25,766 nt of DNA from assembly GCA_035503215.1 (NCBI GenBank), contig DATJTR010000117.1, forward strand, positions 1 to 25,766, given 5' to 3'. The first letter of the stretch is position 1, and each line of letters starts with the position of its first letter. Below are positions 15,268 through 18,567 of this stretch, piece after piece. The DNA comes from Pirellulales bacterium (GTDB lineage Bacteria; Planctomycetota; Planctomycetia; Pirellulales; PALSA-1355). The position numbers and the translations under genes were made by a program. A model generated the notes under the pieces. The model had not been told where the DNA came from. It made no database searches and saw only the letters and a list, made by a program, of their open reading frames with translations.

Positions 15268-16053
15268 ATGAGATCGCGGCCGCCGGCCCGGCACCGGATC
15301 GTGGTGCTAGGCGCAAGTAACGTTGCACGTGGGATTTCGGTCATCGCCGAAACCGCCCGCCAAATTCATGGTCGGCCGCTGGAGATTTTCGCCGCCTTCG
15401 GCCGTGGCCGCTCTTTTGGCAAGACCAGTTCGTTCTTGGGTCACCAGCTGCCGGGCATCGTCGAAAGCGGTCTCTGGCAGTCGCTCTCTGCGCAAGCGCA
15501 CCTGCCCACCAGCGCGCTGGTGACCGACATCGGCAACGATTTGTTTTACGATCAGCCGCTGGATCGGATCGTCGGTTGGATCGATTTTTGTCTCGCGCGG
15601 TTGGCCGCGCTCGAAGCGCGGACCGTGGTCACGCGATTGCCTTTGGACAACTTGCCGGGGCTCGGCGAGCGCAGATTTCGGCTGCTGCGAAAAATTTTTT
15701 TTCCCAACTGTCGACAAAGCCTGGCCGAGGTGACCGAGTCGGCCCGAGCGCTCGACGCGCGCGTCGCCGAGCTGGCCCGCGCGTATGGCGCGGAGATGAT
15801 TTCGCCGCCTCGCGCGTGGTATGGATTCGACGCGATTCACATTCGTCTCCGCGCCGTGCCGCGGGCCTGGCGTGAGATTCTGTTGGCCTGGTCGCCGGCG
15901 ACGGCGCCCGCGCGCGGCGTGGCGCCTTCGCCACTGCGTGCGCTCTATCTGAATACGGTTTTTCCCGAGCGCCAGCGTGTTTTTGGCCGTGCCTGGCAGG
16001 TGCGGCAGCCGTCGGGAAAACTGCCGGACGGGACGACGATGTGGTTCTATTGA
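15268..16053 (+). CDS. SGNH/GDSL hydrolase-like protein
   Basis: Block I VVLGASN, block III DIGNDL, block V FDAIH. Follows the M50 gene by 32 nt. Confidence 0.72.
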   Translation: MRSRPPARHRIVVLGASNVARGISVIAETARQIHGRPLEIFAAFGRGRSFGKTSSFLGHQLPGIVESGLWQSLSAQAHLPTSALVTDIGNDLFYDQPLDRIVGWIDFCLARLAALEARTVVTRLPLDNLPGLGERRFRLLRKIFFPNCRQSLAEVTESARALDARVAELARAYGAEMISPPRAWYGFDAIHIRLRAVPRAWREILLAWSPATAPARGVAPSPLRALYLNTVFPERQRVFGRAWQVRQPSGKLPDGTTMWFY

Positions 16054-16084: not shown

Positions 16085-16268
16085 GCGGCGATCGCGTCGT
16101 GTTGCCTGGCGCGGCGCTGCGCAATCATTTCGCGCAAGCGCGCGCACGACGCGGCGCGATCGATCGATGCGCGCGATTGCGCGTACGCCGAGTGGCTGCG
16201 CGGTGACGAAGAGGACGAGCGCGACTTGAAAAAAACATGCGCGATGCAAAGATTTCAGCGAACACATG

Positions 16269-16296
16269 TTGCAGAAATCAGAAGAATTTGTACAAC
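16269..16296 (+). promoter_or_regulatory. Candidate sigma70 promoter TTGCAG-N16-TACAAC for the micropeptide locus
   Basis: Lies in a locally AT-rich patch immediately before the structured leader. Spacing is 16 nt. Confidence 0.4.
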
Positions 16297-16489
16297 TACT
16301 AATCAGTGTGTTTCCCTGAACGAGGAGTTGATCGGCCCGACGTGATCACCAGCGACTCGTGTGCGTGTGACGCGACTGGCCGTGACTGAGTGTTGCGTTT
16401 CTGTTCAGGGTGGGACTCGCTCGCAGACAAACGTGACCTTGGAGGTCACCGAGACGGATCTCGCCGAAACTTTTTTTGGAGGACGGACT

Positions 16490-16576
16490 GTGGCCAAGAA
16501 GAAGAAAGCTGCTGTGAAGAAGGCTGCCCCGAAGAAGAAGGCCCACAAGAAGGCGGCCAAGAAGAAGAAGAAGTAG
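16490..16576 (+). CDS. 28-aa Lys/Ala-rich histone-H1-like micropeptide (MAKKKKAAVKKAAPKKKAHKKAAKKKKK)
   Basis: GGAGG at 16478-16482, 7 nt before GTG 16490. In-frame AAG/GCT/GCC codons to TAG. 16 Lys and 8 Ala. The ORF track extends it to GTG 16361, but that start lacks a comparably placed RBS. Confidence 0.8.
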   Translation: MAKKKKAAVKKAAPKKKAHKKAAKKKKK

Positions 16577-16594
16577 CTTTGAAGAAGTAGCATC

Positions 16595-16785
16595 GTGCCG
16601 GTAGCACTTGGGGCCGGTAGAAACTACCCCCCTGGCAAGCTACGCGGAACAGGCACCGCTTAGAGCCCGCTCGACTCTGCACAGGGCATCGAGGCCCGCC
16701 GCAAGGCGAGTGTCAGCCTGAGGATGGGTGCCGCTACCCCCGTTTGGCGCTTGGTGTGAAAACCCAGCCGGCCAGCGGTAACGAA
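16595..16785 (+). ncRNA. Candidate structured RNA (3' UTR element or separate sRNA), no family recognised
   Basis: Hand-found helices: GGTAGC 16600-05/GCTACC 16733-38; GGCACC 16652-57/GGTGCC 16727-32; GGGG(CC)GGTAG-AAA-CTACCCCCC 16610-32; CTCGA...TCGAG enclosing CTCT-GCAC-AGGG; CGCC-GCAA-GGCG; GCT.GGT-GTGAAA-ACC.AGC within TGGC...GCCA and CGTT...AACG. No convincing ORF; ends just before a terminator. Confidence 0.5.
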
Positions 16786-16796
16786 ACAACGAGAAA

Positions 16797-16834
16797 GAGC
16801 CGCCGGAAGGGTCTTCCGGCGGCTCTATTTTTTT
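16797..16834 (+). terminator. Rho-independent terminator
   Basis: 13-bp perfect stem GAGCCGCCGGAAG/CTTCCGGCGGCTC, loop GGT, followed by TATTTTTTT. Confidence 0.9.
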
Positions 16835-16840
16835 GAGGAA

Positions 16841-17012
16841 GGCTACAGGCCACAGACTACAGGCTAAGGTAGGAAGCAGGGCAGCACCAAGTGGCCGCAT
16901 GAGTGCCGCACGTTTCGCGACGAGAAGACCAACGAACTCGTGGCGCGCTGCATTCGAGCTAAAGCCCAAGAGCTGTTGTCGCCTGTAGTCTGTAGCCTGC
17001 GGTCTGCAGCCT
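16841..17012. repeat. Two short heptamer arrays (consensus CTACAG[G/A]) in inverted orientation flanking about 116 nt
   Basis: Left CTACAGG-CCACAGA-CTACAGG (16843-16863). Right CCTGTAG-TCTGTAG-CCTGCGG-TCTGCAG (16982-17009). The arms give 13 bp of perfect complementarity and 20/24 overall. Confidence 0.75.
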
Positions 17013-17017
17013 TCCCC

Positions 17018-18106
17018 TCACATCTTCAGCGACGGCAACGGCGCGGCGGCGGGTCCGGCGGCGGCGAGATTGCGGACGAGCGTCTTGACGATCGCTTCCA
17101 AATAGGGCGCGGCGGCGGGATCGGTGAGATTGGCCGCCGTTTGACCACTGTCGCCGTGCTCGCGAATCGAAATCGTGATCGGCACCTCGCCCAAGAACGA
17201 AATGCCCAGCTCGGCCGCGCGGCGTTTGGCCCCGCCCGATCCAAAAATGTCGTACCGCTTGCCGCAATCGGGACAGACGAAGCCGCTCATGTTCTCGACC
17301 ATGCCCAGCACGGGAATGTTTACCTTGCGAAACATCGCCACCGCTTTCACCGCATCGAGCAGGGCCACGTCTTGCGGCGTGCACACCACCACCGCACCGG
17401 TCAGGGGAACGAGCTGCGATAGGCTGAGGGCAACGTCGCCCGTGCCGGGGGGCATATCGATCACCAGGTAGTCGAGCGGGCCCCAAGCAACGTCGCGCAA
17501 AAACTGGGTCAGCGTGTGGTGCAGCATCGGCCCACGCCACACGACCGCCTCGCCCGGGGCGACGAGCAAGCCGATCGAAATCATTTTCAGCCCGGCCGCG
17601 TCGATCGGCTGGATGCGGCTTTGCACTACCTCGGGCTTGCCGCTGGCGCCGAGCAGGTGCGGGATGCTGGGGCCATAGACGTCGGCATCGAGCAGGCCGA
17701 CGCGGCTGCCGGCTTTGGCCAACCCGAGCGCGAGACTGGCGGCGATCGTGCTCTTGCCGACGCCTCCCTTGCCCGAGCCGACCGCAATGATGCTCTTTGC
17801 GGTCACGCCGAGCTCGCCGCGCGGCTGCGGTGGCCGGTCGAGCACGGCCAGATCGACTTTCACTTCTTCGAGTGCCGGAAACCGGCCGGTGAGGAGCGTG
17901 ATCAGCCCGCGACAGGTGTCGTCCCACAAGGGAGCCGAATGGGTCGAGAGGGCCAGGGTGAGCGAAACGCGTCGGCCATCGATCGCCAGATCGCGGATCT
18001 GCGAGCCGGCCAGAAGGCTTTCGCCGGTTTCGGGATCGACGACCTCGGCCAACGCCCGCTCCAGGTCGGCCCGGCTGGGCAGTTCACTCGTGGGGGAATC
18101 GCTCAT
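17018..18106 (-). CDS. mrp: Mrp/ApbC/NBP35 iron-sulfur cluster carrier ATPase with N-terminal DUF59-like domain
   Basis: VGSGKGGVGKST, DADVYGPSIP, VVWRGPM, YLVIDMPPGTGD, GMVENMSGFVCPDCG, LGEVP. N-terminal LAEVVDPETG. Confidence 0.94.
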   Translation of the reverse strand: MSDSPTSELPSRADLERALAEVVDPETGESLLAGSQIRDLAIDGRRVSLTLALSTHSAPLWDDTCRGLITLLTGRFPALEEVKVDLAVLDRPPQPRGELGVTAKSIIAVGSGKGGVGKSTIAASLALGLAKAGSRVGLLDADVYGPSIPHLLGASGKPEVVQSRIQPIDAAGLKMISIGLLVAPGEAVVWRGPMLHHTLTQFLRDVAWGPLDYLVIDMPPGTGDVALSLSQLVPLTGAVVVCTPQDVALLDAVKAVAMFRKVNIPVLGMVENMSGFVCPDCGKRYDIFGSGGAKRRAAELGISFLGEVPITISIREHGDSGQTAANLTDPAAAPYLEAIVKTLVRNLAAAGPAAAPLPSLKM

Positions 18107-18123
18107 CGCGGTTTCAAATCCTC

Positions 18124-18567
18124 TCAAGATTCCAAGGGAAGCGTCTGCCAGATTTGTTCAACGAGTTCGTCCATGGCCGCCCAATGCCGGCTGGTGGCGT
18201 GGCGGCCGAGATGCCGCCGGGCCAGCCGCACCACGGCCGGTGCTTCGCCGCGGCCGCAGCAAACCTGCACGGCACCGAGTTCGCTGGCAAGTGCCGCCTC
18301 GTCGGCATCTTCGCGATCGAGCAGCACCACGACCGGGGCCTTGGGGTAGCGGCGTCCGAGGGTGTCGACCATTTCAGCCGCCTGATCCCGTCGCTGGGCG
18401 CTCCAGGCCAGGGCCACCAGGCTTTCGGGCGCGTCGGCAAGCCGTGCCAAAGCATCGGCCGGGCGACGCGTTTCGACGATCCGCAGCGGCTTGTCACCCG
18501 CAGCCTGCCGTAACGCGGCCGCCCAGCGGCCGGTCGGTTCGCAAACGATGAGTGCGGGACGAGACAT
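18124..18567 (-). CDS. Receiver (CheY)-fold-like protein with degenerate phosphorylation site
   Basis: LIVCE...WAAAL / ADALARL...SLVAL / YPKAPVVVL...AALASELGAVQV follows the alternating beta/alpha receiver layout. Ends 17 nt before mrp. Start placed at MSRPAL (18567). Confidence 0.6.
   Translation of the reverse strand: MSRPALIVCEPTGRWAAALRQAAGDKPLRIVETRRPADALARLADAPESLVALAWSAQRRDQAAEMVDTLGRRYPKAPVVVLLDREDADEAALASELGAVQVCCGRGEAPAVVRLARRHLGRHATSRHWAAMDELVEQIWQTLPLES

Follow-up and report, generated by a model that had tools for sequence, protein, structure and literature searches.

Downstream of a very short open reading frame in a Pirellulales bacterium lies a stretch of DNA that folds into an elaborate secondary structure when read as RNA and ends in a strong terminator. 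Does this stretch, positions 16577-16834 on the plus strand of the 25,766-nt sequence analysed here (the window), represent a new non-coding RNA, possibly acting together with the peptide encoded upstream, or is it the tail of the message for that peptide? The original prediction, made from the sequence of the window, had regarded it as a candidate for a novel structured RNA of about 200 nt outside the known families and had placed leader, peptide ORF and folded 3' domain on one transcript of about 530 nt. The region is non-coding and is bounded by the TAG stop codon of a GTG-started ORF of 28 codons on one side and by a U-run on the other. We consider it most probable (roughly 0.6) that the folded region is the 3' UTR of a monocistronic mRNA of ~530 nt for a Lys/Ala micropeptide, and that it serves as a cis-acting termination and stability module carrying an accessory expansion. 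The coordinates of all features are compiled in Table 1.

Table 1 Features of the micro-gene and its folded 3' region, in window coordinates.
Feature	Position	Strand	Description
Promoter	16229..16297	+	A-tract (UP-like) 16229-16235; -35 TTGCAG 16269-16274; -10 region TGTACAACT 16289-16297
5' leader	16303..16489	+	Hairpins GUGAC-loop-GUCAC 16433-49 and CGAGA-CGGA-UCUCG 16450-63; U-run; SD GGAGGA 16478-83
Micro-ORF	16490..16576	+	GTG start, 28 aa, MAKKKKAAVKKAAPKKKAHKKAAKKKKK, TAG stop
Tandem duplication, 14 nt	16567..16594	+	Copies 16567-80 (GAAGAAGTAGCTTT) and 16581-94 (GAAGAAGTAGCATC); spans stop codon
Domain A	16598..16647	+	Nested helices ending GGUAG-AAA-CUACC (16616-28), then C-run; six-sequence consensus A5
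Domain B	16652..16732	+	Long irregular hairpin closed by GGCACC/GGUGCC; apical GGGC-AUCGAG-GCCC 16684-16697
Domain C	16738..16778	+	Expanded form of the family-wide hairpin H2 (CCGYU...AGCGG); apical loop GUGAAAAC 16756-63
Linker and invariant box	16779..16802	+	Box ACGAGAAAGAGCCG 16789-16802, runs into base of terminator stem; linker partly single-stranded (predicted)
Intrinsic terminator	16796..16834	+	14-bp stem with 3-nt loop 16796-16826; U7 16828-16834

Comparison with known RNA families gave no assignment. At gathering scores, Rfam 15 yielded no match in the window or in ten homologous loci, and a permissive scan of 16150-17050 (E<=10) returned only sub-threshold noise from the terminator hairpin. 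ARAGORN detected neither tRNA nor tmRNA, and we found no description of this RNA or of the peptide in the literature. Several established functions were considered for the 3' region and rejected. It does not resemble a CsrA sponge of the CsrB/RsmZ type, as GGA motifs are not enriched (3 compared with 4.8 ± 1.6 expected). Mimicry of rRNA was dismissed because the G001 transcript produced only chance matches of 8-12 nt with its own 16S and 23S rRNA in blastn-short searches. A repeated or mobile element such as REP or MITE is incompatible with a 3' domain that is single-copy both in its own genome and in the family. Open frames are present in all six frames, as expected of GC-rich DNA, and a protein-coding function is excluded by scattered, frame-breaking indels of 1, 2, 4 and 5 nt in the six-sequence alignment A5 introduced below, those of 1 and 2 nt being decisive. 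An Hfq-dependent sRNA derived from the 3' UTR was likewise discarded, as no Hfq (PF17209) was found in the four genomes G000, G001, G002 and G013, the last of which is 100% complete.

The question of which transcript the region belongs to can be approached from both ends of the micro-gene. Upstream, a block composed of an A-tract, TTGCAC, a spacer of 16 or 17 nt and TGTACAA(C/A)T precedes the micro-gene in nearly all loci compared and is conserved across the family and beyond, in much of the order (homologous loci L002-L030). A consensus promoter scanner missed this block at 16229-16297 because its -10 element lacks the canonical A2 and T6. The block may exemplify a kind of strong housekeeping promoter used by the Pirellulales, and transcription is predicted to start near 16303. 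Downstream, a terminator scan revealed no terminator-like site between 16577 and 16795. The segment at 16796-16834 combines a G+C-rich hairpin with a directly following U-run and is a Rho-independent terminator. The original prediction had recognized this terminator correctly but had described its stem as 13 bp long, whereas it comprises 14 bp with a 3-nt loop, followed by U7. The site also reads as terminator-like on the minus strand.

RNA sequences from the environment connect the two ends. Between 11 and 14% of the sampled words of 16300-16850 were recovered in many small metatranscriptomes from soil, peat, roots and litter. A comparison of four RNA runs (X3, X7, X16, X18) with the window, at 80% similarity, placed contigs of relatives on 16390-16577. 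Word depth reached up to 2138 in a peat run, and assembly succeeded even from metatranscriptomes of 11-37 million letters. Contigs of relatives resembling L278, L285 and L281 reach into the homologous 3' domain by 31 to ~217 nt beyond the stop codon, the longest extension into the UTR (~217 nt) being that of a single contig of 368 nt. Note that such contigs from RNA libraries show presence and not transcript ends or processing. None of the RNA runs listed contains the 3' domain of this very organism. In close relatives, the RNA thus begins in the leader, passes unbroken through the ORF and enters the large 3' domain, and the transcript family is abundant. Assembly from such small data sets and the word depth reached imply that the micro-mRNA is very highly expressed in environmental Pirellulales. 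The proposal of one transcript of ~530 nt for leader, micro-ORF and folded 3' part is therefore supported: a conserved promoter has its predicted start site near 16303, there is no terminator between the stop codon and 16796, and contigs of relatives bridge the stop. By these criteria, 16577-16834 constitutes the 3' UTR of the micro-ORF's transcript, with continuity across the stop codon seen in close relatives.

In principle, the region could also harbour an independent ncRNA gene with its own promoter between micro-ORF and terminator, or an RNA could originate from the minus strand. The fold is strong, and no known family excludes such a gene. On the other hand, 16577-16600 contains no conserved promoter-like block, conservation is lowest immediately behind the stop codon, and the RNA contigs of relatives cross the stop codon unbroken. 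For the minus strand, the folding is weaker (z = -2.5), the G-U pairs favour the plus strand and transcription entering from the convergent gene is stopped at the terminator. We regard this possibility as very improbable.

The micro-gene has a wide distribution. BLAST searches with 16230-16850 as query against 60 relatives showed 75-88% DNA identity for leader and ORF (~16398-16580) within the family. Most families of the order gave matches as well, though weaker ones, and the final ~60 nt proved to be conserved, too. Many columns of the leader are invariant in an alignment of 29 loci (A3). GGA motifs lie in the loops of its two hairpins (16441 and 16456), with three more within or after the SD sequence. 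Across the Pirellulales, the micro-gene is present once per genome, and the 3' region is always attached to the micro-ORF. Its neighbours encode a conserved protein of 249-261 aa without Pfam match (15268-16053, plus strand) and a convergently transcribed Mrp/NBP35 (ApbC) ATPase (17018-18127, minus strand). Metagenomic relatives exhibit the same gene order, and homologues of the neighbouring Mrp protein are labelled Pirellulales. Downstream of the terminator and ahead of the stop codon of mrp, 119 nt are flanked by a 30-nt inverted repeat (16837-66/16986-17015, 83% complementary); about 20 further copies of its arm (GGAAGGCTACAGGCCACAGACTACAGGCTA) are scattered over other contigs of this genome, which identifies the repeat as dispersed and REP/MITE-like. 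Each of the genomes G000, G001, G002 and G013 encodes between 4 and 11 CsrA paralogues, and CsrA may control the message of the micro-gene. The leader contains 7 GGA motifs as compared with 4.9 expected, a number that is not significant on its own.

The GTG-started ORF is intact in nearly all of ~45 loci, where it spans 21-31 aa and differs in length by multiples of three nt. Only G020 and L285, both of them long-read records, carry a frameshift. Sequence variants in the RNA contigs sit on third codon positions (16510, 16513, 16522, 16525 and 16543). Between ORFs of equal length, shifts in the Lys/Ala register confound codon-position counts. Taken together, the comparative evidence indicates that the micro-ORF is probably translated. 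The resulting peptide is a Lys/Ala polycation with 57% lysine and no acidic residue. It belongs to no family in Pfam or NCBIfam, and its composition is like that of bacterial histone-H1-like proteins (Hc1/Hc2, AlgP, BpH1). In a sample of 400 genomes from the phylum, almost exclusively from outside the Pirellulales, the exact SD-start signature was not found; its tight form is therefore limited to this order, and divergent relatives may exist. Exact-pattern scans of metagenome and genome contigs for GGGCATCGARGCCCGCCGC returned only chance matches in unrelated taxa, none of them with the 3' box. In G003, the only match is a more divergent Lys/Ala micro-ORF (L302, G003:C208) with a different leader and a related 3' box (ACGAGAAAGGGGCACC plus hairpin), and several other genomes of the family contain a second, weaker match to the micro-gene. 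Such divergent Lys/Ala micro-ORFs may be paralogues or fast-evolving copies.

With the region placed on the transcript, the fold itself can be considered. The 258 nt at 16577-16834 (plus strand) have a minimum free energy (MFE) of -118.4 kcal/mol compared with -97.3 ± 5.4 kcal/mol for dinucleotide shuffles (n = 200; z = -3.93), not one of which folded as well. In the fold of the full 532-nt transcript, the 3' domains stay intact, and domain A adopts the same structure as in the isolated region. These values, together with the lack of Rfam, tRNA and tmRNA matches, bear out the description of the region as non-coding, structured and outside known families. The structural details predicted originally fared unevenly. 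The helix GGCACC 16652-57/GGTGCC 16727-32 is present in the MFE fold as well as in the six-sequence consensus and shows A-U and G-U replacements in relatives; the long interrupted final stem corresponds to domain C, 16738-16778; and the postulated GUGAAA loop is real and conserved, in the form of GUGAAAAC (16756-63) on a covarying stem. For the second helix of the supposedly coaxial pair, GGTAGC 16600-05/GCTACC 16733-38, complementary sequence exists, but the helix is not used in the MFE fold, which pairs 16587-91 with 16733-37, and it is not conserved, its 3' half being missing in four of five relatives. Similarly, the sequence GCAA is found at 16701-04 but forms no tetraloop in either the MFE fold or the consensus, and relatives carry GCGGR. 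The duplication of GAAGAAGTAG at 16567-76 and 16581-90 was verified and is part of a 14-nt tandem repeat, which supplies the GUAGC closing the MFE fold. The repeat is missing in G001 and four other close relatives and is therefore recent and specific to this genome. Judging from these comparisons, the same specificity to this genome would apply to the one coaxial helix and the GCAA loop.

How far does the large fold extend among relatives? For the ~200-nt middle, BLAST found a match in only one other species of the genus, G001, at 70% identity; in the same pair, nearly all columns of leader and ORF are invariant. The large form is also present in four metagenomic relatives, which were reached via contigs encoding the closest Mrp homologues. 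The alignment A5 comprises these six large-form sequences (window, G001 and the four metagenomic relatives), aligned by sequence alone. Its consensus consists of three domains with 70 pairs and has an energy of -47.8 compared with -21.3 ± 3.3 in 100 column shuffles that preserve gap and conservation classes (z = -7.9). Canonical pairs fill 90.8% of the pair cells, a value that falls to 36-46% when the 3' partners are slid by 1-3 columns. Compensatory changes, as envisaged in the original prediction, occur in 10 of the 70 pairs as compared with 5.0 ± 1.6 double-change pairs after redealing of the 3' letters, and none of 500 shuffles reaches 10, although six related sequences provide limited statistical power for covariation. 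G-U cells outnumber A-C cells (35 versus 13), which favours the plus strand.

The single domains reflect this pattern. In domain B, the closing helix is kept via G-C to A-U and G-U changes and the lower helices are kept with different sequences, while none of the six sequences shows any change in the apical stem; the loop reads AUCGAR in five of the six and differs in L281. In domain C, the apical stem covaries beneath a conserved loop (UGG/CCA, GUCG/CGAC, CCG/CGG, GUCG/UGAC, GCCG/CGGC), and the base CCGNU/AGCGG matches H2 of relatives with short UTRs. We thus state that the 3' region is a conserved structured RNA element within one genus-level clade only, and the three-domain fold (~180 nt) appears to be maintained by selection there. 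The large fold is absent from other genera, and its place is occupied by only 35-130 nt in other genera and families. As it is confined to this clade, the notion of an independent conserved ncRNA of ~200 nt has to be abandoned: the large fold is an accessory, lineage-specific expansion of the mRNA tail and not a separate RNA gene.

This conclusion agrees with the architecture of the UTR in 29 loci of the family and one locus each from two other families. Here, the stop codon is followed by a short pyrimidine-rich stretch, a hairpin of variable sequence (H1), the hairpin H2 (CCGCU...AGCGG), an invariant stretch ...CAACGAGAAAG and the terminator. When short-form UTRs were analysed with MAFFT and RNAalifold, only H2 was recovered; H1 appears in single-sequence folds and is not alignable by sequence. 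The distance between stop codon and box varies from 58 to 212 nt in the family and from about 35 to about 230 nt in other families; among relatives overall, the variable middle measures about 35 to 240 nt. Tandem-repeat growth of this variable part was seen in L284 (JGI contig Ga0643777_0000625), with ~15-nt units of CAGACAGTACCTATT, and in L301 (G015:C669), with ~23-nt units of CTTCTGACTGCCGGAGTACCGGC. UTRs thus seem to expand, among other ways, through slippage.

Given this plasticity, the large fold could be regarded as neutral, GC-rich filler that arose by insertion and duplication in a tolerant UTR in which nothing but the terminator matters. Length and sequence do vary wildly among lineages, at times through tandem-repeat growth, a fresh 14-nt duplication is present in this genome, and the 3' domain is only 70% identical to that of G001, in contrast to the near-invariant leader and ORF. 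Neutral filler would, however, hardly retain its fold in the clade despite ~30% divergence (z = -7.9 against column shuffles), with compensatory changes, covarying apical stems under the conserved loops GUGAAAAC and AUCGAR, and 91% pairing where slid controls reach ~40%. We consider this explanation improbable.

Clearly, the most remarkable and constant part of the region is formed by its last ~45 nt, i.e., box and terminator. The box consensus aCaACGAGAaAGaGCCG (ACGAGAnAGrGCCG) was found in 48 of 49 homologous loci from many families. Together with the complementary stem base, it occurs exactly once in each of 54 of the 111 Pirellulales genomes sampled; among high-quality genomes, the pattern of box and hairpin was present in 50 of 102, and it extends over 20 of 28 families. 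A reversed control pattern gave five matches in total across the same 111 genomes. The box is unique in its own genome and better conserved across families than the coding sequence. In 29 relatives, 10 of 15 pairs of the terminator stem exhibit compensatory changes, and the base AGAGCCG/CGGCUCU is kept. The order-wide invariance of the box, a feature not recognized in the original prediction, is the strongest sign of a specific RNA function in this region. Exact conservation of 9-14 nt over ~20 families exceeds the needs of a plain terminator or exonuclease block, so that a specific interaction at the box is likely, and a picture restricted to cis-acting functions may be incomplete. Linker or box are predicted to pair with the leader hairpin (UCUCG/CGAGA), with the U-run before the SD sequence or with the 5' end; these pairings are without covariation support because both sides are invariant.

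An interaction partner of the box could be another mRNA. In 3'-UTR-derived sRNAs such as CpxQ, SroC and DapZ, the seed region is typically located just 5' of a strong terminator. Following this layout, the mRNA would be processed, or internally transcribed, to give a trans-acting sRNA with the box ACGAGAAAG as the seed that pairs with other mRNAs, and the whole would constitute a dual-function RNA. The position of the invariant stretch directly upstream of a strong terminator, its conservation beyond that of the coding sequence across families and the great abundance of the transcript are all in line with this idea. It is nevertheless unlikely: no hfq gene was found in the four family genomes, one of them 100% complete, perfect complements of the 11-mer from the box are no more frequent than controls in five genomes and no conserved target site emerged, and the box is only partly unpaired according to thermodynamic prediction (mean unpaired probability 0.38).

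Alternatively, the partner could be the peptide itself. A polycationic peptide might bind its own mRNA and thereby exert autoregulation, as ribosomal proteins do, or peptide and RNA might assemble into an RNP whose folded tail acts as a buffer or chaperone for the peptide. From its composition, with 57% lysine and without acidic residues, the peptide is expected to bind RNA. Conservation of leader and 3' box goes well beyond the requirements of coding, and the entire unit is retained en bloc. The big fold, however, is missing from most lineages with the peptide and is therefore not essential to such a unit. The transcript also lacks the resemblance to 16S or 23S rRNA expected of a mimic, and the specificity of the contact is doubtful because polylysine binds any RNA. 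Autoregulation or RNP formation of this kind is accordingly quite improbable. A bolder combination of these thoughts envisages a bifunctional transcript that serves as the mRNA for the peptide and in addition uses box and terminator as a recognition module whose ligand might be an RNA-binding protein, the peptide or a pairing partner, with the three-domain fold included in this clade and the abundant RNA functioning as a regulator or RNP scaffold. We regard it as an unlikely possibility. If true, it would establish an undescribed peptide-RNA system in the Planctomycetota.

The reading as the 3' UTR of a micropeptide mRNA accommodates these observations as follows. A strong promoter would drive synthesis of a monocistronic mRNA of ~530 nt that encodes the 28-aa Lys/Ala polycationic micropeptide conserved across the Pirellulales. 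Its UTR consists of two parts, a variable, insertion-prone structured middle that has grown to three hairpin domains in this clade, and an order-wide constant module in which the box ACGAGAnAG leads into the conserved base of the strong terminator. This module would stop transcription just ahead of the convergent mrp/apbC gene and, to judge by its anatomy, provide a very short and abundant mRNA with a nuclease-resistant 3' end. The invariant box would probably act as a docking or pairing site for a putative partner and thus determine how stable the message is or how it is translated.

Bacteria of the order Pirellulales abound in soils, peat and waters, and to our knowledge their RNA biology is almost unexplored. 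The locus described here constitutes an unannotated, single-copy, strongly promoted micro-mRNA, and its relatives are among the easily assembled transcripts of very small metatranscriptomes. The ends of the micro-gene, that is promoter, leader and 3' box with terminator, are more tightly conserved than most genes. The 3' module provides a searchable annotation signature, ACGAGANAGRRCCG-N(12-40)-CGGYYCT downstream of a GTG-started Lys/Ala micro-ORF, and a concrete target for mutations affecting stability or translation of a 28-codon message. The natural expansion series from 35 to ~240 nt can serve as a probe for the contribution of a structured 3' UTR. If the box turned out to mediate binding or pairing, it would give first access to post-transcriptional control in these bacteria, for which four genomes revealed 4-11 CsrA paralogues and no Hfq.

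Structured 3' UTRs and terminators that stabilise mRNAs, dual-function sRNAs, 3'-UTR-derived sRNAs and hok mRNAs are established systems with which the element can be compared. With hok-type mRNAs of type I toxin systems it shares a small ORF on a long, compactly folded RNA, and pairing is predicted between its 5' end and the linker in front of the terminator. Unlike the hok product, the peptide is not hydrophobic and is no membrane toxin, no antisense RNA was seen at the locus, and the end-to-end pairing is short, U/A-rich and lacks covariation support. CpxQ, SroC, DapZ and MicL likewise have a conserved segment directly upstream of the terminator of an mRNA; here, the search for complementary sites stayed at background, and the likeness is one of layout. 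SgrS/SgrT, RNAIII/delta-haemolysin, SR1/SR1P and Spot 42/SpfP also combine, on a short transcript, a tiny ORF with a larger, conserved and structured non-coding part and a strong terminator. In contrast to these dual-function sRNAs, leader, ORF and the foot of the terminator are the most conserved parts here and not the large fold; no Hfq was found in four genomes, and the resemblance is one of anatomy. The 'positive retroregulator' of cry1A in Bacillus thuringiensis and 3' ends stabilised by REP sequences are, like the element described here, cis-acting structured 3' ends that combine with an intrinsic terminator on a highly expressed message, and variable upstream hairpins are tolerated here as well. 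The UTR differs from these examples in being longer than the ORF it follows, a stabilising role is suggested by its anatomy, and a box of 9-14 nt together with the stem base is invariant throughout the order and occurs once per genome. Going by Rfam and the literature found, the element adds a new motif to a familiar class, the structured 3' ends of mRNAs, and is made unusual by an order-wide invariant box on an unannotated micro-gene.
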